Notes under the pieces: model-generated | The model's input: only the letters and a program-made list of their open reading frames with translations | Told to the model about the DNA's origin: nothing | Database searches by the model: none | Position numbers and translations under genes: made by a program | Shown: positions 11,835 through 33,499 of the stretch, piece by piece | Layout: the number at the start of each line of letters is the position of its first letter | How positions within the stretch are numbered: position 1 is the first letter of the stretch | Virus genome (UHGV): UHGV-0196292 | Direction: 5' to 3' (one strand) | DNA from: a virus | DNA length: 44,047 nt

Positions 11835-12028
11835 CCTCCCTCAGAGTCGTCGGCACGAGCATCATGATTCGATGCCGTTCGTAGCGCACGTAAAACTTTT
11901 AGCAGGTCCTTCCATACCCCGGAAGAAATAGTTGGGCCGTCGAATAAAATAACTTCGTATCTGTTTACCTGGAAATGCACTTTCTCCAGTCTATGATGTT
12001 TCAGTTCTTCAAATAATTCTTCCATCAC
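11825..12028 (-). CDS. hypothetical protein
   Basis: 67 aa ORF. Confidence 0.3.
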   Translation of the reverse strand: MMEELFEELKHHRLEKVHFQVNRYEVILFDGPTISSGVWKDLLKVLRALRTASNHDARADDSEGGCR

Positions 12029-12216
12029 TTCACCCCTTTGAATTTAAAATTGTTGCCGATGAGACACATATCCTGTGCGTATAAAACGGTGAGATACGAC
12101 CCCGTTAAAGATTCAGCAAAATAGATATTATTTTCTTTATGAAATGCGAATATGACCGCAAGCTCCCCAGTCCCCGTAATTCTCACCAACTGACCCTTCT
12201 TAAACATAACTCTCAC
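12025..12216 (-). CDS. hypothetical protein (first gene of minus-strand early operon)
   Basis: 63 aa ORF directly downstream of promoter 12242-12270. Confidence 0.35.
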   Translation of the reverse strand: MRVMFKKGQLVRITGTGELAVIFAFHKENNIYFAESLTGSYLTVLYAQDMCLIGNNFKFKGVK

Positions 12217-12241
12217 TCCTCTGTCTCGTTCCGATAAGTGA

Positions 12242-12270
12242 ATAGTATCCTATTATGCTGGGGCGTGCAA
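12242..12270 (-). promoter_or_regulatory. sigma70-like promoter TTGCAC-N17-TACTAT with GAATAG-N4-CTATT palindrome
   Basis: Minus-strand hexamers at 12265-12270 and 12242-12247. Confidence 0.5.
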
Positions 12271-12644
12271 GAGAATAGTTACGTTGCCGTTGTGATTCTT
12301 TCGTTTCTTAAAAGAGTACGCAACGCAGTGGGTGGGCGTTAGCCCACCCCAGCGGAGTGAAGTACTCTCCGCCTTGCTCACGGCAACTGTAGAAACTTTT
12401 AATTATCAGTGACTTAAGAGGTATGATGCCGATGAGAATAGAGCTTACCCAGGGCAACCGGAGATACAAGGAAGGAAAGTTACGGTAATTCTTATGTTCA
12501 GTAATCTGCCGCTTAACACTTCGCTTGCGCTTTGGCGCCGCTGCGTTTCAAGCGGGTATTACAAGGTGAACAGGAATCAAAGTAACTAAGATATAGAAGC
12601 ACCTTAAACGAAGATTTTCATAATGTCAATATGTGCGATTATGT

Positions 12645-12673
12645 TTGATTTCCCATTATTCGCAATGTATACT
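12645..12673 (+). promoter_or_regulatory. sigma70-like promoter TTGATT-N17-TATACT for plus-strand replication block
   Basis: Hexamers at 12645-12650 and 12668-12673. Confidence 0.45.
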
Positions 12674-12705
12674 TGGTTCCTATAACTGATAATGAGGGTT
12701 TGAGA

Positions 12706-12876
12706 ATGACACAGAATGAGGTAGCTGAGCGTATCGGGGTTACTCGTCGCACACTTAATAACTGGTTAAAGAGTGGGAAGTTCCCGGATTGTTGTATCCG
12801 TATTATGGGTCGCCGTCAGCCAGGTACGTTCGACCCGGAGAAAGTGGAAGCGTGGATTAAGGAGAACGTGAAATGA
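12706..12876 (+). CDS. AlpA/excisionase-like HTH transcriptional regulator
   Basis: ATG at 12706 with GAGGG RBS (track start 12673 is TTG); VAERIGVTRRTLNNWLKSGKFP HTH pattern. Confidence 0.5.
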   Translation: MTQNEVAERIGVTRRTLNNWLKSGKFPDCCIRIMGRRQPGTFDPEKVEAWIKENVK

Positions 12877-13106
12877 CCGAATTTCAGTCGCGCGTATTTA
12901 CGGCGGTCGTTTCGTTAACACGTAAAAAAGGGTCATGCAGTGTTATCGACTTGCGCCGTAGTTATTTTAAGTACTATAGTTCAGCCATTATTGAAGGGTC
13001 GTTGAAAGTGCTGGTTAAATCGGGTGTCGTGAAAAACGTTGGCGGGAAATATAACGCTGTTGCTGAAGTTCGCGGAATGACCGCTACTTTAGAAGACCTG
13101 GAATAA
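12873..13106 (+). CDS. hypothetical protein
   Basis: 77 aa ORF, overlapping start/stop. Confidence 0.4.
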   Translation: MTEFQSRVFTAVVSLTRKKGSCSVIDLRRSYFKYYSSAIIEGSLKVLVKSGVVKNVGGKYNAVAEVRGMTATLEDLE

Positions 13107-15652: not shown

Positions 15653-15856
15653 ACCGAACGCCAGCCACTTGGCGTCTACTTGCAGCACTTCCGCCAGTTT
15701 AAACAGCGTTGCCGGTCGGACGTCCTGAGTTACCCCGAGTGCCAGTTGGTTAATCGCGCCCTGAGAAACACCAGCCAGAACAGCCAGACGGCGCTGGGAG
15801 AGGCCTAGCTCTTTACGGCGTTGTTCTACACGGATGCCTAGTTCAGATGGTTGCAT
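15641..15856 (-). CDS. XRE-family HTH regulator (Cro/CI-type)
   Basis: HTH motif QRRLAVLAGVSQGAINQLALG; lone minus-strand gene inside plus-strand block with own promoter and terminator. Confidence 0.7.
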   Translation of the reverse strand: MQPSELGIRVEQRRKELGLSQRRLAVLAGVSQGAINQLALGVTQDVRPATLFKLAEVLQVDAKWLAFGEGA

Positions 15857-15887
15857 GTCAATTACTCCTTAGTCAGTTGATATGTGA

Positions 15888-15916
15888 ATAGTACCATATT
15901 AATTATTTTAGAAAAG
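15888..15916 (-). promoter_or_regulatory. promoter of XRE gene (TG-extended TACTAT -10, weak -35) overlapped by palindrome
   Basis: Minus-strand TGGTACTAT (15888-15896); GAATAG..ATATT palindrome 15887-15901. Confidence 0.4.
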
Positions 15917-15920
15917 CCCA

Positions 15921-15949
15921 TTGACAACATGAATAGTTCGCTATTATAG
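15921..15949 (+). promoter_or_regulatory. divergent sigma70-like promoter (TTGACA-N17-TTATAG) overlapped by GAATAG-N4-CTATT palindrome
   Basis: Consensus -35 at 15921-15926; palindrome 15932-15946. Confidence 0.5.
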
Positions 15950-15981
15950 TTAGCCTATACCAAACGAGAGGAGAGAAACAA

Positions 15982-16131
15982 ATGACCAATAACCGCAAAG
16001 CAAAGATTCTGTTAGGCCTTGATATTGCATTTGGAACTAAAGAAACCGCACGCTATCGCGTAAGCAACAATCGTGTTGGCTTCTTCGACAAAGCGACGGG
16101 CCGGTTAGTTAAAACCGTTAAATACAAATAA
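15982..16131 (+). CDS. small basic protein (49 aa), first gene after the switch region
   Basis: Strong RBS GAGAGGAGAG; hand translation MTNNRKAKILLGLDIAFGTKE...; below ORF-track cutoff. Confidence 0.4.
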   Translation: MTNNRKAKILLGLDIAFGTKETARYRVSNNRVGFFDKATGRLVKTVKYK

Positions 16132-16146
16132 ACAGGAGAACAAATA

Positions 16147-16608
16147 ATGTTAGACCAATTCTTAAAATTACTGGAACGTTTCGTAGTTGCCCATGAACTG
16201 ATTGCTGCGAACAGTGTGAAACAGGTTGTCGTTGCTGAAACTGCAACAATCGGGCCTACTGTTGCAACAAAAGAAATCCCGGTTGAAGGAGAAGACGTCG
16301 TCGACACTAAACCTGCAGAAGAAGAGAAGCCGAAACGCAAGCCGCGTAAAGGTAAAGTAGAGGAACCTGCGCCAGAGCCGGAAGAAGAGAAAGAAGAGGT
16401 CGATTACCAGTCCATTCGCGACCAGATTCAGGCTATCGACGACGCGATTAACGAGGGTCCTAGTGATGCCGCGTGCGATGATTCCGATGAACTGCTGGAA
16501 GAGTTCACCGGTAAGAAGATGAAGATTGCCGCGATTAAAGACGAAGACCTTGCGGAGTACCTGGAACGCCTGACGGCAATCAAGAACAAGTATTTCGAAG
16601 AAGAATAA
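16147..16608 (+). CDS. highly acidic protein
   Basis: 153 aa with long Glu/Asp-rich tracts (EEPAPEPEEEKEE; DDSDELLEEF). Confidence 0.5.
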   Translation: MLDQFLKLLERFVVAHELIAANSVKQVVVAETATIGPTVATKEIPVEGEDVVDTKPAEEEKPKRKPRKGKVEEPAPEPEEEKEEVDYQSIRDQIQAIDDAINEGPSDAACDDSDELLEEFTGKKMKIAAIKDEDLAEYLERLTAIKNKYFEEE

Positions 16609-16651
16609 TTATCCCGCGGCCTTCGGGCCGCTTTAACTGAGGGTCGGAATT

Positions 16652-16855
16652 ATGGCTATTTTAGCTAAGAAAAGTGGGCTTATGATTTCAGGGCGAGTCA
16701 TAGAAGAAACAGATAACTTTGTATGCTTCCACGCGGTAGATAATAAACGCCCTACGTATGTACAAAAGTCGGATAAAACACAAAAAGTTTTCGACGGTGA
16801 TTTTTCTATGGATGACGTTTTCTCGTGGATTAATTCTGTGAGGGTAAAGAAATGA
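16652..16855 (+). CDS. hypothetical protein
   Basis: 67 aa ORF in operon. Confidence 0.4.
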   Translation: MAILAKKSGLMISGRVIEETDNFVCFHAVDNKRPTYVQKSDKTQKVFDGDFSMDDVFSWINSVRVKK

Positions 16856-22509: not shown

Positions 22510-22701
22510 ATGAAATACGAATATGGCTGCAAACCAGCACGTGACATCGTACCGGGCGACATGATTTTCAACGTTAAGACCCGCCAGCCTGTTGCCGTTG
22601 ATACGGTGTTCGTAGAGTCTAACGGTAAACTGGTAATCGAAGATGTAACCGGTAACGTTACGGCGTTCGGACGTAAAGAGTTGGTGCTGGTGGCCAAATG
22701 A
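22510..22701 (+). CDS. hypothetical small beta-rich protein
   Basis: 63 aa ORF between VRR-NUC and methyltransferase genes. Confidence 0.35.
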   Translation: MKYEYGCKPARDIVPGDMIFNVKTRQPVAVDTVFVESNGKLVIEDVTGNVTAFGRKELVLVAK

Positions 22702-23642
22702 ACTATTACAACGAATGGGATAAAGGCGCAGCCGCGTGGCTGCGTGAATTAATAAAACAGGGCCACATACCTTTTGGAGTTGTAGATGAAAGAAGCATTA
22801 CCGAAGTTAAGCCAGAAGACCTTGACGGGTTCACCCAGTGTCATTTTTTCGCTGGCATCGGCGGCTGGCCTCTCGCGCTCAGACTTGCGGGAGTTTCGGA
22901 AGATACGCCTCTCTGGACGGGAAGCCCGCCTTGCCAACCGTTTAGCGCGGCAGGAAAACAACTCGGACAGTTCGACCCGAGACACCTCGCGCCAGTCTTC
23001 CTCGACCTCATCAGCGAGTGCCACCCTCCAGTCCTCTTTGGGGAACAGGTTGCGCCAGCAATTGCAAAATCGTGGATGTGCGATTTACAAACTCACCTGG
23101 AAGGAGAAGACTACGCCGTCGGGTTTGCCGTACTCCCAGCTTGTAGCGTCGGCGCTCCGCACAAAAGAGAACGACTCTTCTTTGGTGCGTACCAACTGGC
23201 CTGCACCGACAGCGAACGATTACAAAGGGAGCGGAGAGACTGTTATCCGCAAGGACGGGAAGGACAGAACATTCGACAGGCTGGACTACTCAACGGAACA
23301 GGGGCTAAAACTGACGAATTGGCCCACCCCTCGCAGTTCGGATGGGGAAAAGAACGTGAGAACACTAGAGGGGGCGCTATCGGAGATTCAGAGGAAGGGT
23401 GGGCCTCAAGACGTGGCACAAGCGGCGGCGATAACACAACTAATTCGCATCACGGCTTCTGGTCAGATGCTGACTGGCTCGGATGCCGGGATGGAAAGTT
23501 CCGGCCAGTTGAACCCGACACATTCCCGCTGGCTAATGGGATACCCGCCAGAGTGGGACGATTGCGCGGTTACGGCAATGCCATCGTCCCGCAAGTAGCC
23601 GCCGAATTTATAAAGGCGTTTATGGGGGCCGTAAATGAGTAA
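22698..23642 (+). CDS. DNA (cytosine-5) methyltransferase, apparently frame-disrupted
   Basis: Frame 0: motif I FAGIGGW, IV PPCQPFSAAGK, VI FGEQV, VIII GAPHKRERLFFGAY, X GYGNAIVP; motif IX (RWLMGYPPEW) and WPxPTA-type TRD repeats only in +1 frame (track ORF 22786-23598). Confidence 0.6.
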   Translation: MNYYNEWDKGAAAWLRELIKQGHIPFGVVDERSITEVKPEDLDGFTQCHFFAGIGGWPLALRLAGVSEDTPLWTGSPPCQPFSAAGKQLGQFDPRHLAPVFLDLISECHPPVLFGEQVAPAIAKSWMCDLQTHLEGEDYAVGFAVLPACSVGAPHKRERLFFGAYQLACTDSERLQRERRDCYPQGREGQNIRQAGLLNGTGAKTDELAHPSQFGWGKERENTRGGAIGDSEEGWASRRGTSGGDNTTNSHHGFWSDADWLGCRDGKFRPVEPDTFPLANGIPARVGRLRGYGNAIVPQVAAEFIKAFMGAVNE

Positions 23643-25059
23643 GTTTCAAAGGCGCGAATACCAGAAGCTCATGACTTCGTTCATGCTGCAACATCCGCGC
23701 TGTAATATTTGGGCGAGCATGGGCGCCGGGAAGACCGGCAGCGTACTGTGGACATTAAACCGACTGTTCCGCAACGGCCAACTTAATGATGACGACCGCG
23801 TGTTAATACTCGCCCCGCTGCGCGTTGCGTCCGGCACATGGCCCGCAGAACAAGAGAAATGGCAATTCCCATGCCTGAATGTCGTCGATGCTACCGGTTC
23901 AGAGAAGCGCCGCATCACGGCGCTGGAGTCAGACGCCAATGTGATTTGCATCAACTACGAGGTCATAGACTGGCTTATTGACTATTACGGCGTGGATGAC
24001 TGGCCATTTACTGTAATAGTCAACGATGAAAGCACGAAATTGAAATCATATCGTAGCCGTTCCGGGGGGAGCAAGCGGGCTAAGGCACTTAGTAAAGTAG
24101 CATTCAGAAATGTTAAGAGGTTGATAAACCTTACTGGTACGCCATCGCCAAACGGCCTCAAGGATTTGTGGGGCCAGAACTGGTTTATAGACGCTGGCGA
24201 GCGACTTGGTTCTTCGTACACGGCATTCACCGACCGCTGGTTTAACTCGGTACAGAAGGGCAAATCAGCTATGGCGCGCGAGTACCACGCCCGCCCTGGC
24301 GCAGATAACGAGATTCACCAGAAGATGAAGGATATTAGTCTCACTATTGACGCTGCCGAGTGGTTCGGCTGTGAAGCGCCGATTATCGTTCCTGTTGAAA
24401 TCGACCTGCCGAAGAAAGCACGTCAGGCGTACATTGATATGGAGGAGAAGTTATTCGCGGAACTGGAGAGCGGGGAAGTTGAAGCGGCTAATGCAGCAGC
24501 GAAGACGTCGAAGTGTTTGCAGATTGCCTCTGGTGCCGTGTATGTATCGGGGCCAGACGGTGAAGCAACCAAAGACTGGGAGAAAGTGCACGACACGAAA
24601 CTGGATGCGCTCGAGTCGATTGTTGAGGAGTTACAGGGCGCTCCGTTACTGGTGGCCTATCAGTTTAAGCACGAACTGGAACGTATCCTTAAGCGTTTCC
24701 CACAAGCTCAGGCGTTTGCCAAAGGTGCGAAGGGCAATAAGCAGATGGAGGCGTGGAACCGTGGCGAAATACCTATGCTCCTGATACACCCCGCCTCCGC
24801 AGGCCACGGGCTGTCGCTACAACACGGCGGGCACCACATGGCCTTTATGAGTCAGGGGTGGAACCTGGAACATTATCTGCAGGTTATCGAGCGTATAGGC
24901 CCAGTAAGGCAGATGCAATCTGGGTATAAACGGTCTGTATTCATTTATCAAATAATAGCCCGAGATACTCTTGATGAAGTTGTTGCCGCGCGTACCGACG
25001 AGAAAAGGTCCGTACAGGACGAACTACTTAATTATATGAAGCGCAGAGGTAAGAAATGA
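23635..25059 (+). CDS. SNF2-family helicase
   Basis: P-loop (GAGKTG), DExx-like (VIVNDEST), LTGTPSPN motif and C-terminal helicase region. Confidence 0.8.
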   Translation: MSKFQRREYQKLMTSFMLQHPRCNIWASMGAGKTGSVLWTLNRLFRNGQLNDDDRVLILAPLRVASGTWPAEQEKWQFPCLNVVDATGSEKRRITALESDANVICINYEVIDWLIDYYGVDDWPFTVIVNDESTKLKSYRSRSGGSKRAKALSKVAFRNVKRLINLTGTPSPNGLKDLWGQNWFIDAGERLGSSYTAFTDRWFNSVQKGKSAMAREYHARPGADNEIHQKMKDISLTIDAAEWFGCEAPIIVPVEIDLPKKARQAYIDMEEKLFAELESGEVEAANAAAKTSKCLQIASGAVYVSGPDGEATKDWEKVHDTKLDALESIVEELQGAPLLVAYQFKHELERILKRFPQAQAFAKGAKGNKQMEAWNRGEIPMLLIHPASAGHGLSLQHGGHHMAFMSQGWNLEHYLQVIERIGPVRQMQSGYKRSVFIYQIIARDTLDEVVAARTDEKRSVQDELLNYMKRRGKK

Positions 25060-25193
25060 ACATCATAGCCCCGATTCCGGCATTGCAAAAACGTATCAAA
25101 GAACTTGAGGAGGAGGTTCTACGGCTACGGCAGCAAAGAGACGCCGCTAATGCGCAACTGGCGTTTGTACTGGAGAAGTTATCAGAAGAGTAG
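25056..25193 (+). CDS. small coiled-coil protein (45 aa)
   Basis: Hand translation MNIIAPIPALQKRIKELEEEVLRLRQQRDAANAQLAFVLEKLSEE; ATGA overlap with SNF2 stop. Confidence 0.35.
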   Translation: MNIIAPIPALQKRIKELEEEVLRLRQQRDAANAQLAFVLEKLSEE

Positions 25194-25195
25194 AG

Positions 25196-25228
25196 AAAAG
25201 GCCCCGTTATGGGGCCTTAGTTTTATGA
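25196..25228. terminator. bidirectional terminator between convergent replication and tail blocks
   Basis: AAGGCCCC-gttat-GGGGCCTT with T-runs on both strands. Confidence 0.65.
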
Positions 25229-25231
25229 TGG

Positions 25232-27217
25232 TTATCTAAGCCATTGGCTTGGTTTTTGTTTCAGTATATGTATCGCCCCTTGCCCAGAAGCTGCGGATTG
25301 CGCAGTTGATAACGTCACGATGTAGGTATTCCCTACTGTTCTTGGTTGAGTAAGGTTAAATTGGAAAGGGGAGCCAGTGCAGGTGATGTATTCAATCCCT
25401 GAGTCAGAAGTAACCTGAAATTCTGTTGATACCACACTACCGGAAGAAATAGATACATGAATCGCTATCTCACCCCCCGTATATACAAAAGGTATGCTTG
25501 GCGTATTTGAAAAATCCTTAAAGTTAAGCATTGCCGTTGAACTAATGACCTCTTTGCCAACGTCATTAGTTAGCTGAGCAGGTTTAACGTAATCATAAGG
25601 GTTGAGAACGTAATAGTTTACGAAATTTACAAAACTTGAAGACGCCTTTGAAGAACTATGCCATGTTTTTTTATTGTCTATACGGTATATGGATCGGATG
25701 TTGAGAAACTCACTTGCCGTTGCTCTTTGCAGTATACCAGTCCCTATGCCAAAATGGATATTACCGACGTCAAATACGTGGTCCTCGACATTTCCTGTAG
25801 TTGATAATATCGCAATATCAGGCTCTGCACTATCTTCAAGCGCTTCACTGCATTTTTCGAAGTACATAGAACCAACAGACCAACTAACAGCGTTAACAGT
25901 AGCTAAACCAGCGCCTGCTGTGGTTTCAGCTATTAATGTTCCTATTCTCGATGCCAGTCCTTGCCCGAGAGTGACACCGGCGCCTATGAGCTGTGGGGTT
26001 AAAGATGATGAATACGGGTCATACCCATAGGACAAAGATTTTGATGTGTTATACGCAGCGACGACACCAAATTCAACACCATTAACGTTTACATCTCCGG
26101 TTTCACCGGAGAAACCATGTGCCAAAGATACACCTCTTGCACAATCAATCGCCATATATTGGTTTACTTTATGATACCAACTCCCAAGAAGTACAATTCC
26201 AACTTCTGTGGCATTATAAGCATATATAATGTCTGTGACAGATTCTGCAACTACACCAAAACCATAAAAACCGTAAGGCGCAACATTGTTAGCATCAATA
26301 TTTAATGTGCCAACGTGCCTAATTCCACGAACTTGTTGTTCAGGCAATGAAAGGTCTGGGGATGTTCCTACTGGTTTTTTGCTGGCGCGAACTACAGCCT
26401 TTCCGCCCCATGAGTAGCCACTCATCGCTTTAATAGTTGCGCCGTTTGTCTCCATCACTAAATATGACGGGATAACAACTTCATCGCTAACAAAATAAGT
26501 AGCACCAGCAGTGAGTCGTAAAAATCCAGTCGCTATTGCCTTGTTAATGGCGTCAAGGCAGTCATGCGTACTGTTATTTACAACCGCCCCGAAATTCTCG
26601 GGTGTATTCTCGTCAAACCCATTCAGTTTACCTACGTTAGACCAAGCGGAATCAGGGGCCGAGCCGTAGGAGAACGGCAATACGCCAGTATATCTGTACC
26701 AAAAGCCGTCGGCGTCGCCCACAACGTCGTATTTAGTACCTACAGACCCGCTGTCGGAAAACTTACCAACTTTTTTGTATAAGGATAAGTTGCCGTTGTC
26801 GGGTAGTGAGTACCCGCGCCATGATTGCAAGTCGATGCGTAAATCTGGGTCTGTCTGCGGTTTCCAGTCAGCGTTTCCTACCGGGTTAAAGCCCGCTGGA
26901 ACGGTAACAGGTAGTGCACCCGCATACGAGTACCACGTTTTACTCACAGGGTCATAAACCACTTTGTCGCGGTCGGCTGTTGTCAGCGTGCCACCGGTGG
27001 AAAAGTCCCACGATACAGGAGAAAAGCCAGCATCACGTAACACGGCCGGGAGTGTCTTCTGCGTCTGTCCGGTAACAGGGTTGGTCGCGTAGTCAATATC
27101 AGCATCGCCAGCGACACCGCCGGATTTACCGGTGATAACCTCGGCTTCAAAAATCTGGTGTTTCTTGGCGGTTTGTAAATCCGCCAGGCTTAAAACGTCA
27201 CCGCATCCGCTTGACAT
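25232..27217 (-). CDS. tail fibre / tailspike (receptor-binding protein)
   Basis: 661 aa, last gene of tail operon; Gly/Ser/Thr-rich beta-type sequence; distal part markedly AT-rich. Confidence 0.7.
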   Translation of the reverse strand: MSSGCGDVLSLADLQTAKKHQIFEAEVITGKSGGVAGDADIDYATNPVTGQTQKTLPAVLRDAGFSPVSWDFSTGGTLTTADRDKVVYDPVSKTWYSYAGALPVTVPAGFNPVGNADWKPQTDPDLRIDLQSWRGYSLPDNGNLSLYKKVGKFSDSGSVGTKYDVVGDADGFWYRYTGVLPFSYGSAPDSAWSNVGKLNGFDENTPENFGAVVNNSTHDCLDAINKAIATGFLRLTAGATYFVSDEVVIPSYLVMETNGATIKAMSGYSWGGKAVVRASKKPVGTSPDLSLPEQQVRGIRHVGTLNIDANNVAPYGFYGFGVVAESVTDIIYAYNATEVGIVLLGSWYHKVNQYMAIDCARGVSLAHGFSGETGDVNVNGVEFGVVAAYNTSKSLSYGYDPYSSSLTPQLIGAGVTLGQGLASRIGTLIAETTAGAGLATVNAVSWSVGSMYFEKCSEALEDSAEPDIAILSTTGNVEDHVFDVGNIHFGIGTGILQRATASEFLNIRSIYRIDNKKTWHSSSKASSSFVNFVNYYVLNPYDYVKPAQLTNDVGKEVISSTAMLNFKDFSNTPSIPFVYTGGEIAIHVSISSGSVVSTEFQVTSDSGIEYITCTGSPFQFNLTQPRTVGNTYIVTLSTAQSAASGQGAIHILKQKPSQWLR

Positions 27218-27229
27218 ATAGAGTCCTCT

Positions 27230-29812
27230 TTAACTAAAACCGTTGCTGAATCCGCCGGAGAAACCGCTACCGAAAGGCGCGACGCCGTCGTATTTATAGA
27301 AATCTGCTTCGTAGTTAATCCCGGTAATCTTAACCGTTCTGTCGTCTCCGGGGTCAACTGTAGAAACAAGAATCATCTGAGCATTATGCCTTGCTTCGTT
27401 GCCGAATGAAAACTCAGTTTTTAGTGCGCTATTCCCTGTGTATATCGCCTCCTGCGGCGCAGAGAGCATAACCACTTCACGGTCGTGGCTTCCAGGCACA
27501 ACGGCAACACTTTGAACTCCACCGTCTCGCTTCTTAAGAATAAGTGAGTGGTCGTCTCCGGGGGTAAATGTAATAGGTTGTGATAGCGTCAGCGCAAGCC
27601 CATTAACGGCAACAACATAGCCATCTTGCGGGGCCATACGCGAACCTTTTACCACACTTACCGCACGCCCAGGCATTGCAAAAATCCCTTCTTCTGTCGC
27701 TGTGAATGATACCGTTACCTTCTTCAACAGGTGTTTCTGGTAGCGGCGGTACGCAGCCCAGTACGCCTGTTGATAATTACGGATACCTTTAGAGTCGTAC
27801 GTTTCAGTATTAACGCCACCTTCTGCGGGGATGCTGATTGTCTCTTTGACGTTTGTATTCGGGTCGATGTACGAAAACTTGAGACTATCGTATACCTGGG
27901 CGTCATTAAACGTGCGCGTCCATTTCTCAGTAGCTGGGGTCTTGCTGCGATGGGTAAACACCATCTCAGGGCCGATGCGAGGGCGCTCGAAGTCCAGAAG
28001 AATATCGGCGCCTCTGCGGTATGGGGTGCAGAAAATTGCTTCCGCTATCGTAGTTACTATGTCCTGCATAGTGGTTTTATAGTCATCAAACGTATAGCAA
28101 AACTCTCCTGCGGATGTGCTGCCGAAATAGCTTTCAATTTCGTTCTGCACGGCCAGCAGTTTATCCATATTTGCCGTTGTCAGGTTCAGTGCGCCAACTT
28201 CCGGGTCTCTGGCGAGGCGAATGAGGGACTGGGTGGCCTTCGTGTTCGGCGTGCGAACTGTGTCGAAAACTCCGTTACCGAGGTACTTAAATACCATCTC
28301 CGTCACCACCATGCGCAACTGAGGTTGTTTAACCTCCGCCGCTCGTGGCGTCTGTTTACGCGCGGAATGCACTGTCGTTCGGTTACCGTAGTGCGGGGTT
28401 CGGTCGACTAATTGCCCGTAAAGATTTATATAGGCCACTTCATCGACTACTGTACCCTCAAAATCAAGGTCCAGATTGGTGACACGACGCGCTCTCACTC
28501 TTACACGTGATACGGACGGCAGGTCCGCATATATAGTAACCCCAGTATAATCGGCAGACCTTCCGGAAACTGTCCCTTGTTTAGTGTAAACAGGGCCGTA
28601 AGCGCTCCCTGTTTCATCTAAAAGCTGATACTGCAGCTCTACGGTCACTGCAGCCCTGGATTTATTGTCCCCATTGTCTTTGTACATACCATTCGTAGCG
28701 CCAATGTTGGCCACGATTCTTTCTACTGCAATTCTGTTTATAGCAACCCAATCGGTGAGGCTGGCCGAGGTGGTATCTAGCGGGCCTATAGTTGACTCTG
28801 GTTCATTAGATTGTATTTTATAGCCGCCCACAGGCAACTTCTGCCATTGAGATAGTGCCGGTGTGGCATCTACCCTAATCTCCGTCTCGCTTACAGAAAT
28901 GCATGTGTAATTCCCATCAAGAATGGCGTCCGTTGCTGGGTTTGGGCTGCCGGATACCCAGCAATGTATACCGATGAATTTAACGGCCATACCCACTTTG
29001 ATAAAGTCACTAAACCCGGCGTCCCCAGTTGGGTCGGTTACTGTGCCAGTTGTTCCCTCCAGTTTCGCAATAGATAGTTCTCTCGTTACAGGCGACGCAA
29101 GGTCGTTAGGTGCTTTCAGCACCACACCGTCCACTTCATTGGACGCAACAGTGATGTAAAGCCCTTGTGTAATGGGGCTTCCGACCATTAATTGTGGGGC
29201 GTTTGTGTTGTTCGGAGAGGTGTACGGAGCGTACACCGCCACAGACGTGCCGGTTATATCCCGGACCTTAGTATCGCCGTCGGTGATGTCTTCTGCTTTA
29301 ACGTCAAGATACCCGCGCCCCGCATCATAATAACCGTACTCGATGATGCGACCAGCGTCATCGAAGACTTTATATGTAGTCATAAGGTTATTAGGTATTG
29401 TCTGCACCCTGCCGCAGATGTCATAAGTTCGCTCGTAAGGGCGAGCCTTGTTATTTCGGTCTGTCAGACTGTTGTTCGGTGAGTCCGCTTGCTGGTTAGC
29501 AAGATTGTTAGACGCGCCCTTCGTTGACGGTGTGAGTAATTTAGCTAGCGGTTTAAGGATGATGCTGAACACTTTCATCACACCCTTGATAGCACCGCCA
29601 CCAGCACCTTCCAGGATGTGGAAAACCGCATCCTGTTTTAACGCGTCGAAATTTTCTGTTACGTCGTTATCCTCCCCTATCTCTTCGAGGAAAACGCGAA
29701 ACGGCACACCGTCAGGGATATGGTTTACGACGAAATTAAGCGGCGAGTCGTTATGCCGTTTTTGTGTGAATGTCCCGTCTTCGTTACGGGTGTAGTGGAT
29801 GACTATCGCCAA
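27230..29812 (-). CDS. tail tip / central fibre protein (lambda J-like)
   Basis: 860 aa ORF downstream of K/L/M-like genes; Gly-rich C-terminus. Confidence 0.55.
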   Translation of the reverse strand: MAIVIHYTRNEDGTFTQKRHNDSPLNFVVNHIPDGVPFRVFLEEIGEDNDVTENFDALKQDAVFHILEGAGGGAIKGVMKVFSIILKPLAKLLTPSTKGASNNLANQQADSPNNSLTDRNNKARPYERTYDICGRVQTIPNNLMTTYKVFDDAGRIIEYGYYDAGRGYLDVKAEDITDGDTKVRDITGTSVAVYAPYTSPNNTNAPQLMVGSPITQGLYITVASNEVDGVVLKAPNDLASPVTRELSIAKLEGTTGTVTDPTGDAGFSDFIKVGMAVKFIGIHCWVSGSPNPATDAILDGNYTCISVSETEIRVDATPALSQWQKLPVGGYKIQSNEPESTIGPLDTTSASLTDWVAINRIAVERIVANIGATNGMYKDNGDNKSRAAVTVELQYQLLDETGSAYGPVYTKQGTVSGRSADYTGVTIYADLPSVSRVRVRARRVTNLDLDFEGTVVDEVAYINLYGQLVDRTPHYGNRTTVHSARKQTPRAAEVKQPQLRMVVTEMVFKYLGNGVFDTVRTPNTKATQSLIRLARDPEVGALNLTTANMDKLLAVQNEIESYFGSTSAGEFCYTFDDYKTTMQDIVTTIAEAIFCTPYRRGADILLDFERPRIGPEMVFTHRSKTPATEKWTRTFNDAQVYDSLKFSYIDPNTNVKETISIPAEGGVNTETYDSKGIRNYQQAYWAAYRRYQKHLLKKVTVSFTATEEGIFAMPGRAVSVVKGSRMAPQDGYVVAVNGLALTLSQPITFTPGDDHSLILKKRDGGVQSVAVVPGSHDREVVMLSAPQEAIYTGNSALKTEFSFGNEARHNAQMILVSTVDPGDDRTVKITGINYEADFYKYDGVAPFGSGFSGGFSNGFS

Positions 29813-31174: not shown

Positions 31175-33499
31175 TTAATACCCCGGCTGACCGCGGGTAG
31201 CGCGGCGAGCTTTAGAAATCGGTGAGTTGTTATCCTGTAACTGCGACGCTACTGTTTCACTGATTATAATACGTAAACGCCCTTCGTCATCACGTTCTGT
31301 TACGGCAGAGTCCACACGGCCGGTGGTATTGTTGACGATTGTCACGCTGTCGCCACCTGACGGGCTGCCGTTTTGGCCCATAATTTCTTTCATCTGCTGC
31401 GCGGTGCGCACACGCGATGCGCCAGCGGGCATGATAACCTCCGGCTTACCGCGTTCAGCGATGGTAGACATCTGGCCTGCCGATAGCTGCCCACCCTGTT
31501 CACGCGCCGAGCGGATTTTGGCGATATTAGCCAGCCCCGCGGCAACGGCAGTAGCCGCGGCAACCGGTGCCAGGAATGGGCCGACGACCGGTATCGCCGC
31601 AGTAGACTTATATGCTTCGATAGCTGACGTGTATGTTGCGATAGTGGCCTGGGCAATAGCAAACGCTTTATAAGCGGCGGACGCCTCGCCAAATGCTGTT
31701 TTAGCATTAGATGCCATGTCACCAAAGGCGTCCCCGGTGGCTTTGGCACGCTTCATTGAATACTGCTCATCCAGGGCTAGGAGCGCCATCTGGTACTGCT
31801 CAGCGTTAATTATGCCGTCGGCCATGTATTTTGAGATGATATTCGCTTTTTGAGACTGTTGTATTTCCAACAACTCAAGCTCAGCGGCATTCTGGCCCAT
31901 AATCTGGGCCATGAAGTCGTCTCCTTTCTGCTGCTTTTCCTGCTGCTCTTTTCTTTTCTTATCCAGTTCTTCCTGTCTGGCCTGCTCGGCTGTGAGCATA
32001 ATTTGAGTTTTGGCGTTTTCGTACTGCTGCTGGCTTATTGTTCCGGCGCGGTTGAACTCTTCAAGTTTCGCCAGTTTCTGCTCTTCTGCCGCTGTGATAC
32101 GTGAAATTTCGTCTCCGGTTGTTCGGTCGACAGTAGCGAGGAAATCTTCCGCCGCTTTTTTCTGTCGTTCAGCTGCGGTTTCTTCGCGTTTGGCTTGTGC
32201 CGCCAGACGTTTCTCGTTCGATTTAGCCTCTCGGTCTGCCTTCGCTTTTTCGGTCGCGTCGATGCGAGCGATGTCTTGCCGTGCTTCCGTGTCACGGGCC
32301 GCGTTATACGCGGCTATCTGTTCTTTGGTGACCGCTTCACGTTTAGCGAACGCCTGTTTATCAAGTTCAGCTTGCGCCCGGATGCGCTCACGGTCGCTTA
32401 ATATGGCGATTTGCTGATTCTTGACGATAGCTTCGTTCTGTTCCTGGAATCTCTGCGTTGTTGAGTTGACGTTACGACCAAGATTCTTTTGGGCCTCCGC
32501 CGCCGCGTTTGCCGACTTCTCCGCGTTCTCCAGTGCCGTGGCATTCTTGTTGGCGTTGTCCGTCAGGCGGATAAGTTCCGGGTTCAACTGTTTTGTGTTA
32601 CCGAGCCAGTCGGTAAACACATCGGCGATGCGACGGGCATTCTCAGCGGTTGGTTCTTTGTTAAACGCACTCTGTGCCGCTATCATCTCCAGCGCCTGGT
32701 CACGGTTAACCCCGAACTTACTGCTAAGCTCCGCGATATTCTGCGCCAGCATGTTGACGCCTACGATATTACCCTCGTAAGTGCCTCCGAGTTTTTCTAA
32801 CGTGTCGCCTACATCAGCACCCTTAGATACCAGCGCGTCGTACTGGCTAATAGCTGATGCAGTGGAGGCTTTCCATGTTTCCCACGATTCGGCATCTTCA
32901 CGAACAGCTTTAGCGGTTTGCTGCGCGATAAGGTCTGCGTTAGCCTTAGCCAGAGCAAGCTGAGTCTCCGCCGCTTCTCTGCTGATTTGGGTTAGCTGAA
33001 TAAGGCCGTCTGTCAGTTCTAGGGAGCCAGATGCCGTTTGCTGGAAGGTGTCTTTTAACTGTTTCTGGGCTGCTTCCAGGTCTTTTGAACTCCCCTCAGC
33101 CTCCGTTAGCGATTTGTACAGGACACCGCCAACAGCCGACGCTAGCGCGATTACAGCCCCAAGCACCGCACCACCAGGGCCGAAGGCACCTGCAAGCTGT
33201 GAACCTTGTTGCCCGATTGCTACGAATGCAGACGTGCCGGACTGCAATTGGACAACCATGTCCTGTACCTGGAAGCCAACCTGCCCGGCGGCGTTACGGA
33301 ACTTAGCGAAACCGTCAGAGGCCGCTTTAGAGGTAGCTGTGTTAACTTTATTAACATCTGGGGTCAGCTTGTTTACTGCGGTATCCGCACGGTCTGCAGA
33401 CGACGCCATAGCGTCAAGCTGTTTGGCGGCTACGTCAGCACCTTCTGTTTTTACTCTGGCAATTAGGGAAGCCGTATCAGCCATCTTCTCTGCCCTCAA
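31175..33499 (-). CDS. tail tape measure protein
   Basis: 774 aa, Ala/Gln/Glu-rich coiled coil with Gly-rich hydrophobic segments; follows chaperone pair. Confidence 0.85.
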   Translation of the reverse strand: MRAEKMADTASLIARVKTEGADVAAKQLDAMASSADRADTAVNKLTPDVNKVNTATSKAASDGFAKFRNAAGQVGFQVQDMVVQLQSGTSAFVAIGQQGSQLAGAFGPGGAVLGAVIALASAVGGVLYKSLTEAEGSSKDLEAAQKQLKDTFQQTASGSLELTDGLIQLTQISREAAETQLALAKANADLIAQQTAKAVREDAESWETWKASTASAISQYDALVSKGADVGDTLEKLGGTYEGNIVGVNMLAQNIAELSSKFGVNRDQALEMIAAQSAFNKEPTAENARRIADVFTDWLGNTKQLNPELIRLTDNANKNATALENAEKSANAAAEAQKNLGRNVNSTTQRFQEQNEAIVKNQQIAILSDRERIRAQAELDKQAFAKREAVTKEQIAAYNAARDTEARQDIARIDATEKAKADREAKSNEKRLAAQAKREETAAERQKKAAEDFLATVDRTTGDEISRITAAEEQKLAKLEEFNRAGTISQQQYENAKTQIMLTAEQARQEELDKKRKEQQEKQQKGDDFMAQIMGQNAAELELLEIQQSQKANIISKYMADGIINAEQYQMALLALDEQYSMKRAKATGDAFGDMASNAKTAFGEASAAYKAFAIAQATIATYTSAIEAYKSTAAIPVVGPFLAPVAAATAVAAGLANIAKIRSAREQGGQLSAGQMSTIAERGKPEVIMPAGASRVRTAQQMKEIMGQNGSPSGGDSVTIVNNTTGRVDSAVTERDDEGRLRIIISETVASQLQDNNSPISKARRATRGQPGY

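Follow-up and report, generated by a model that had tools for sequence, protein, structure and literature searches.

We describe a phage tailspike gene that is very probably chimeric. It lies in the window, i.e., the whole stretch of 44,047 nt analysed here (virus genome UHGV-0196292), and joins an N-terminal anchor conserved in the phage genus to an exchanged, AT-rich beta-helix receptor-binding module, which was drawn from a shared pool and is probably specific for the O21 O-antigen. A sequence-only reading of the same DNA had proposed horizontal exchange of the receptor-binding region onto a conserved attachment domain. This is borne out, as the distal part is 93–100% identical at the nucleotide level to tailspikes on four other, unrelated phage backbones. 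At the level of sequence comparison, it is these near-identical copies in other genera that prove the exchange, for which composition alone is insufficient. Coordinates are collected in Table 1.

Table 1. Features of the tailspike locus (positions refer to the window).
Feature	Position	Strand	Remarks
Tailspike gene, 661 aa	25232..27217	-	ORF; directly downstream of J-like central tail protein gene
Genus-conserved N-terminal anchor, aa 1–127	26837..27217	-	80–88% nt identity to ~100 Kagunavirus records
Second small Tail_spike_N-like domain, aa 128–200	26617..26836	-	allele of the first domain of the module, confined to the lineage and of normal GC
AT-rich beta-helix depolymerase domain (predicted) and C-terminal domain, aa 201–661	25232..26616	-	exchanged receptor-binding part
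Beta-helix core, aa 281–540	25597..26377	-	nearly identical across the backbones compared
C-terminal domain, aa ~561–661	25235..25537	-	itself mosaic
J-like central tail protein gene (upstream neighbour, backbone arm)	27230..29812	-	phrog_469, phrog_31 (central tail fiber J)
Conserved 45-aa ORF	25056..25193	+	phrog_5915, E 2e-27; convergent with the tailspike gene
Bidirectional terminator hairpin between 45-aa ORF and tailspike gene	25198..25218	.	AAGGCCCCGTTATGGGGCCTT, then a T-run

Phage identity and gene locus

Over a 12-kb stretch around the gene, on which the genus was judged, 65–73% of the sequence aligns at 82–88% nucleotide identity to K1G, K1H, SZH-1, phiSD1, and others. The flanks are overall 80–88% identical to Kagunavirus genomes and show the same gene order. 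With nucleotide similarity plus synteny as the criterion of assignment, the window is, as far as its sequence tells, a Kagunavirus (Guernseyvirinae) siphophage. Because the flanks are of Kagunavirus type, a J-like central tail protein is encoded upstream, and the locus is the known one of the genus (PMC11990801), we regard the gene as the Kagunavirus tailspike. O-antigen dependence of Kagunavirus has been published as well (PMC11990801). PHROG tail spike families match aa 1–138, and an identical protein (P0001) carries the source name "tailspike". The gene product is a tailspike and not the tail fibre of the sequence-only reading, whose assignment of a receptor-binding/depolymerase region nevertheless agrees with the predicted fold.

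Of 78 related loci, as many as 76 align with the J-like gene. On the opposite side, the 45-aa ORF yields 59 HSPs among relatives, the best 25 of these 59 at 92–97% identity, and its identity per bin is 0.89–0.94 compared to 0.68–0.87 for the 3' end of the helicase gene. The 180 nt downstream of the tailspike gene, which comprise this ORF and the terminator, are 92–97% identical among the best-matching loci and thus lie above the adjacent helicase gene. Since the anchor on one side and the small ORF with the terminator on the other are both conserved, they form two homology arms around a cassette. The terminator hairpin is the distal edge of this exchangeable cassette.

Junctions of the exchanged part

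Searched separately, the two parts of the gene lead to different phages, as the sequence-only reading implied. With megablast, the first approximately 380 nt (26836–27217, aa 1–127) match about 100 Kagunavirus records at 80–88%, while 25232–26681 matches only the 150-kb myophages Phapecoctavirus vB_EcoM_UP17 and TSP7_1, at 93–94%; no record spans at least 80% of the tailspike gene. In local blastn comparisons, homology to UP17 covers 25232–26710 and sets in right with the stop codon, at its first base. Homology to Kagunavirus stops at 25225/6, just past the terminator hairpin, and restarts at 26832–26841. Breakpoint mapping against the relatives gives the same picture: none of 78 Guernseyvirinae loci aligns to 25226–26836, whereas 29–76 of them align on either side. 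Both junctions are in frame, with backbone on each side. At the distal junction, UP17 and the window each have a terminator hairpin with a T-run by the stop codon, and the similarity there is too short to count as microhomology.

All 75 IMG/VR Guernseyvirinae loci sampled lack the module, and the variable part of 71 Guernseyvirinae-type tailspikes falls into 48 distinct clusters. Non-colinearity with relatives, which was to be expected from an exchange, holds at the level of the genus but not within one phage lineage of approximately 95% identity, the only place where full-length colinear homologues were found.

Three boundaries can be distinguished within the gene: the end of anchor homology at aa 127 (26836/26837), the onset of high identity to the pool at aa ~181–200, and a GC3 change-point at aa ~210–235. 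The single junction that had been proposed near 26600 does not hold in this form, as the end of homology and the change in GC differ; the position itself is close to the best split in GC over all sites (26583).

Occurrence on other phage backbones

Among 5.8 billion proteins searched, the identical protein and ten other 661-aa relatives at 95–97% identity were found. These ten are located on separate contigs of Logan and ENA assemblies, several of which are about 44 kb in size. A contig of the same lineage, L007 (run SRR25448518), is 95% identical over 7.7 kb and provides an intact Kagunavirus context, the one such context, besides the window itself, that was compared.

On other anchors, the distal module occurs in Phapecoctavirus (688 aa), in a 45.6-kb siphophage (661 aa), in a protein family starting with "MANCNDY" (668 aa), in 815-aa proteins of E. 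coli and Salmonella chromosomes, in 650-aa proteins with a P22 head-binding domain, and in 810-aa proteins. T7-type anchors (PF03906) bear homologues at 41% amino acid identity. Among the loci with available DNA, L008 is an Akiravirus-like siphophage. In E. coli T43 the module resides in a P22-like prophage beside intS/argW and is linked to a Head_binding anchor, and in E. coli CE0021a it is found on a phiV10/TL-2011b-type anchor in a phiV10-like prophage.

In bins of 60 nt, the beta-helix core is 0.90–1.00 identical (mostly at least 0.95) to L007, UP17, TSP7_1, L008, and the T43 prophage. Expressed as nucleotide identity, the core reaches 97–100% in both Phapecoctavirus myophages, the Akiravirus-like siphophage, and the P22-like prophage, and in the phiV10-like prophage it does so from aa ~361. 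Outside the core, the points of entry and exit vary. Nucleotide identity to UP17 is 0.58–0.60 at aa 141–180, 0.85 at aa 181–200, at least 0.92 up to aa ~540, and 0.83–0.95 beyond. For the T43 allele, the entry point is aa ~241; the CE0021a allele reaches core identity only from nt ~1081 of the gene (aa ~361, window position 26137 and below) after 0.72–0.85 before, and both prophage alleles depart at aa ~580. As the sites of entry and exit differ from one partner to the next, the gene represents a fine-scale mosaic from the pool. Judged by these identities, exchange within this pool is ongoing and involves siphophages, myophages, and temperate podophages.

Pas et al. 2023 take at least 30% amino acid identity over at least 60% of the domain in another genus as the criterion for horizontal transfer. 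By this measure the module counts as a transferred subtype: Phapecoctavirus shares 93% over 100% of the receptor-binding domain, the Akiravirus-like, P22-like, and phiV10-like contexts share 82–88% and the T7-like TM1 shares 41–42% over 88%. No donor was found; taken over its full length, the module is at most 93–94% identical to that of another genus.

Base composition and codon usage

The contrast in composition described by the sequence-only reading is confirmed by computation. GC content is 42.6% in 25232–26600 and 38.3% in 26100–26300, compared to 52.9% in the proximal 26700–27217 and 51.1% in the whole window. The "distal two-thirds" correspond to aa ~201–661, i.e., 70% of the gene. Among all 1369-nt segments of the sequence (mean GC 0.5115, sd 0.028), the lowest one starts at 25215 with a GC of 0.422, and only 0.3% are as low as 25232–26600. 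Codon usage is strongly non-uniform, too: the tailspike gene has the lowest GC3 (0.402) of 38 long ORFs, for which the backbone mean is 0.557 (sd 0.046, minimum 0.445).

For aa 201–661, the observed GC is 0.427 with a GC3 of 0.338, while the amino acids of this part combined with backbone codon usage let us expect 0.507. The difference of -0.080 lies approximately 7 sd outside the values for equally long backbone chunks (mean +0.001, sd 0.011, minimum -0.022). This gap is far beyond backbone variation, and hence the deficit is mainly synonymous, in the order of 8 of the 10 missing GC points. The maximum-likelihood change-point of GC3 falls after codon 226 (26539; support 26512–26587) and separates a proximal value of 0.553 from a distal one of 0.324; its log-likelihood ratio (LLR) of 16.1 was reached in none of 2000 permutations. 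It is placed at codon ~226 and not at ~200 because codons 202–226 are GC3-rich in every context compared, and it matches neither of the homology boundaries.

In every context compared, the module itself retains a GC of 0.39–0.43 and a GC3 of 0.28–0.34. Relative to the local backbone, observed minus expected GC amounts to -0.080 in Kagunavirus, -0.066 and -0.057 in the two prophages, -0.036 in the Akiravirus-like siphophage (background GC 45%), and +0.02 in Phapecoctavirus (background GC 39%). Backbone GC3 is 0.30 in Phapecoctavirus and 0.57 in Kagunavirus. The codon usage of the module fits the myophage background of approximately 39% GC best, and only there is the module compositionally at home. 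This fit points to phages of that kind as the candidate reservoir.

Low GC is widespread among the relatives. In 70 of 71 Guernseyvirinae-type tailspikes the distal part has a lower GC than the flanks, by 4.9 points on average (sd 2.9), and the tailspike of the window ranks 12th of 71 with -7.6 points. Given that 70 of 71 receptor-binding parts show a deficit, low GC alone is not diagnostic, and a family-wide cause besides recent transfer could contribute to it.

Domain architecture and predicted fold

The anchor has a GC of 54% (0.541 observed, 0.560 expected), its codon usage is native, and it is encoded by 75 IMG/VR loci. The sole Pfam match of the protein, PF18668 (Tail_spike_N), covers aa 77–112; it is borderline, as its 25.0 bits just reach the cut-off of 25. 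Precomputed Tail_spike_N matches on homologues agree with it.

At the DNA level, the segment coding for aa 128–200 has a match only in L007 (95.8%), whereas at the protein level this domain is 67–68% identical in UP17, L008, and CE0021a. Its GC of 0.507 is close to the expected 0.519, GC3 is 0.56–0.60 compared to 0.20–0.52 in UP17, and the model gives a pLDDT of 86–90. No closer source of aa 128–180 was found among all loci compared. The segment is either an older, ameliorated acquisition or stems from an unsampled, GC-richer source.

An AlphaFold monomer model, based on a 24-sequence alignment, has a mean pLDDT of 74.7, with 85–98 over the beta-helix and approximately 76–90 in the two small domains on the N-terminal side; values for aa 1–63 and the linkers are low. 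The central fold is predicted to be a right-handed parallel beta-helix of the depolymerase type, so that structure prediction of the C-terminal region speaks for the depolymerase assumed there. Invariant Asp and Glu residues are seen in an alignment (D219, E246, D308, E325, and E372). The tailspike may be enzymatically active and trimeric. Searched against the PDB by sequence, the complete protein gave nothing at E≤1, and no beta-helix family of Pfam matches. The PHROGs reach the first ~270 aa only and leave the beta-helix and the C-terminal part without a family. The C-terminal domain is 83–95% identical to UP17 and L008 but only 42–65% to the alleles of T43 and CE0021a, both of which have an alternative C-terminal domain of ~80 aa.

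Probable receptor

Among 5426 complete E. coli genomes, only two, T43 and CE0021a, carry the module. In the O-antigen cluster of T43, wzx and wzy are both annotated as "O21 family". The T43 wzy is found at 99.6–100% identity in 35 of the 5426 genomes, CE0021a being one of them; the chance of both carriers being O21 is approximately 4e-5. Since both module-bearing genomes belong to serogroup O21, specificity for the O21 O-antigen is suggested, and the target of the module, as derived from these genomes, is probably the E. coli O21 O-antigen. Criterion ii of Pas et al. for a serogroup asks for at least 90% identical host serogroups and at least two proteins, and the module reaches this with the minimum of n = 2 lysogens. 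We consider the O21 assignment as provisional, since the alleles of T43 and CE0021a depart from the window both where the helix begins and in the C-terminal domain.

Pas et al. 2023 (PMC10408124) assigned 14 serogroups, and O21 is none of them. Homologues at 71% identity are present in Salmonella enterica chromosomes, and, according to the citation of Li et al. 2011 in PMC7685785, the O-antigens of E. coli O21 and Salmonella O38 are closely related. The Salmonella homologues and this relatedness are consistent with an O21 specificity. The literature on vB_EcoM_UP17 yielded neither a receptor nor a host serotype, and a review found in the literature on O21 and tailspikes does not mention O21 in its main text.

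Proposed mechanism and alternative explanations

In our explanation, the anchor (aa 1–127) would fix the spike to the tail tip, and aa 128–661 would act as the exchangeable module, consisting of a small adaptor-like domain, a beta-helix glycan depolymerase, and the C-terminal domain. Recombination with an AT-rich module pool of unrelated E. coli and Salmonella phages would have brought in, or most recently homogenised, the beta-helix and the C-terminal part. The module would then stand out in composition because there was too little time to drift towards the backbone of 51% GC. Within the genus, the two backbone arms (the anchor, and the small ORF with the terminator) would permit replacement by homologous recombination, while entry from another genus would have required junctions that are short or illegitimate, including one located precisely at the stop codon. 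The module would define the host range, as it would bind and cleave a polysaccharide on the cell surface, most likely the O21 O-antigen of E. coli.

One might object that the AT-richness simply reflects the residues preferred in a beta-helix (Asn, Ser, Thr, Ile, and Lys with their AT-rich codons), in the absence of any transfer. Amino acid composition does contribute, as the expected GC of aa 201–661 (0.507) is below that of the backbone (0.527), and the deficit shared by 70 of 71 relatives would fit as well. This accounts for only approximately 2 of the 10 points; the remaining 8, from 0.507 down to 0.427 at a GC3 of 0.338, are synonymous. Moreover, a bias in amino acids is unable to produce DNA that is 97–100% identical in unrelated phages, which makes this explanation very improbable, and we rejected amino acid composition as the cause of the low GC. 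Even less credence is due to an assembly artefact, in which Kagunavirus and Phapecoctavirus reads of one metagenome were joined, although one source lists the identical protein under a MAG or third-party assembly and the distal junction sits exactly at the stop codon beside a terminator. The same architecture recurs in the ten further 661-aa proteins (95–97%) on independent contigs, which led us to reject an assembly chimera; L007 bears the chimera in its intact Kagunavirus context at 95% identity, the junctions are in frame with backbone on both sides, and aa 128–180 are unlike any Phapecoctavirus sequence.

It is also conceivable, though unlikely, that the module is a long-standing resident of the Kagunavirus lineage, from which the other genera took it, and that a family-wide force keeps it AT-rich. 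Examples of such a force are selection, acting on expression or on the structure of the mRNA, and a mutational bias where the region evolves fast. The family-wide AT bias of receptor-binding parts and the native composition of aa 128–200, which suggests long residence, would agree with this scenario, all the more as the direction of transfer is one that we infer. Against it stand the GC3 of the module (0.28–0.34), which equals that of the Phapecoctavirus backbone (0.30) and is far from the 0.57 of Kagunavirus, as well as the absence of the module from all 75 IMG/VR Guernseyvirinae loci. Whatever the direction, the exchange must be recent, since the core differs by 0–3% between genera with unrelated backbones. 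We therefore retain the exchange of an AT-rich module onto the Kagunavirus anchor as the preferred explanation.

A more far-reaching version of it, which we put forward tentatively and hold to be rather doubtful, assumes a previously unassigned subtype for E. coli O21 and Salmonella O38 with AT-rich Stephanstirmvirinae myophages as the reservoir. If so, the deficit in 70 of 71 tailspikes would record a mainly one-way flow from large, low-GC myophages to small siphophages and temperate podophages, and nested junctions, such as that of the GC-normal aa 128–200, would mark older acquisitions that were later overwritten distally.

Relation to known systems and implications

Exchange of receptor-binding domains across Kaguna-, Lederberg-, Uetake-, and Phapecoctaviruses, correlated with serogroup, was reported by Pas et al. 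2023 (PMC10408124). The mechanism is already well documented, and the present case is an ordinary one for the field. The known Kagunavirus tailspikes (the K1G/K1H endosialidase, Ro145clw for O145, and phiWAO78-1 for O78) share the anchor (80–88% nucleotide identity), the position downstream of the J-like tail protein gene, and the transition from anchor to module at about aa 127, and they likewise have a receptor-binding domain common to Lederberg- and Uetake-type prophages and Phapecoctavirus. They differ from our case in the type of module, which has no representative in the 75 IMG/VR loci and, among GenBank phages, only the two Phapecoctavirus records.

From aa ~181 to the stop codon, the tailspikes of UP17 (CAA7332709.1) and TSP7_1 (QPX71899.1) are 93% identical in amino acids and 93–94% in nucleotides. 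Their domain order is the same (Tail_spike_N-like, second small domain, beta-helix, C-terminal domain), whereas the anchor comprises 205 aa instead of 127, the second small domain is only ~55–68% identical, and the locus, which holds several spikes and fibres, belongs to a 150-kb myophage. The P22-like (Lederbergvirus) allele of T43 is 95–100% identical in nucleotides across aa ~241–540 (~26500–25600) and 95.9% over the megablast match 25470–26508; the phiV10/epsilon15-like (Uetakevirus) allele of CE0021a is 97–100% identical only from aa ~361 to ~540. Both differ from our tailspike in their anchors, Head_binding (PF09008) or phiV10-type, in the start of the helix, in the C-terminal ~80 aa, and in their temperate podophage context. 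Solved beta-helix depolymerases (CBA120 TSP1-4, Sf6, HK620, and Klebsiella Depo32) share 9–15% sequence identity with the tailspike. What is new is the module, for which PHROGs, Pfam, and the PDB offer no counterpart, together with its probable specificity for O21, the nested junctions, and the family-wide GC deficit measured here.

For genome scans, our data imply some caution, as a low distal GC is normal in this family and flags the class of event and not a particular recent transfer. The junctions at aa 127, at aa ~181–200, and at the stop codon with its terminator provide exact cut points for engineering the scaffold or moving the module. Should the O21 assignment hold, it would add one more serogroup to sequence-based host-range prediction and make the protein a candidate depolymerase for O21, and possibly for Salmonella O38, of use in typing or therapy.

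Base composition of the receptor-binding part and of other regions

The receptor-binding part has a lower GC content than its flanks in 70 out of 71 Guernseyvirinae-type tailspikes (loci L003-L085), with a mean difference of -4.9 points and a range of -12.3 to +2.0. This comparison spans 48 unrelated module types, and the low GC content of the receptor-binding part is a family-wide bias.

The window's two other lowest-GC stretches, at about 0.43-0.45 over 1 kb, are located at approximately 11900-13000 and 15800-16800; strand orientation and GC skew switch at the former. The AT skew amounts to -0.34 to -0.36 at 31500-33000 and is far weaker in the rest of the window. The ORF holding this skewed segment is probably the tape measure gene. 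Within the cytosine-C5 methylase gene lies a second long ORF of the same orientation, and in K1G a nested "Mte8-like" ORF is annotated at the equivalent place. Segment 23300-23420 of the methylase region was aligned in only 2 related loci.

Features of the window discussed in the text
Feature	Position	Strand	Remark
Cytosine-C5 methylase gene	22698-23642	+	
Second ORF in methylase gene	22786-23598	+	
45-aa ORF	25056-25193	+	phrog_5915
Bidirectional terminator hairpin	25198-25218		
J-like tail protein gene	27230-29812	-	
ORF with strong AT skew	31175-33499	-	774 aa

Variants of the tailspike module

The lineage-mate phage L007 is 95% identical overall, whereas in its tailspike gene (L007:4001-5986) identity falls to 0.73-0.93 at gene nt 541-840 (window 26377-26677). 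Within this patch L007 carries 'AMPSVTWTGKAVV' where the window has 'AMSGYSWGGKAVV', and the L007 variant recurs in the homologous proteins P0015 and P0016. The patch is short, lies in the helix and resembles a gene conversion. Homologues are also encoded on Salmonella enterica chromosomes (P0019 and P0020), namely 815-aa tailspikes with a phiV10-type anchor and 71% identity to the module. Their occurrence in Salmonella would fit the close relationship that has been reported between the O-antigens of E. coli O21 and Salmonella O38 (Li et al. 2011, as cited in PMC7685785).

A second hypervariable patch was found at 28760-29120, within the J-like tail protein gene. It is aligned by 1-3 of 78 related Guernseyvirinae loci, the flanks on both sides by 40-76, and sensitive blastn gave no match for it in the phage collection. 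At the tail tip, this patch may be a further determinant of host contact.

Potential sites of cassette exchange

A Tail_spike_N-like motif is doubled in tandem at tailspike aa ~94-200 (window 26617-26940), the two copies reading 'WYSYAGALPVTVPAGFNP..W' and 'FWYRYTGVLPFSYGSAPDS.W'. The corresponding sequence in T7-like phage TM1-type proteins (P0057, P0064) is '...VPAGSTPDSNWTNVGKL', which looks as if both repeats had been fused by deletion. The repeats may act as recombination sites in their own right. Downstream of the tailspike gene, the segment comprising the 45-aa ORF and the terminator (25047-25225) reaches 92-97% conservation among the related loci that match best, distinctly more than the adjoining helicase gene (0.68-0.87). 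When tailspike cassettes are exchanged between members of the genus, this segment could serve as the homology arm on the downstream side.
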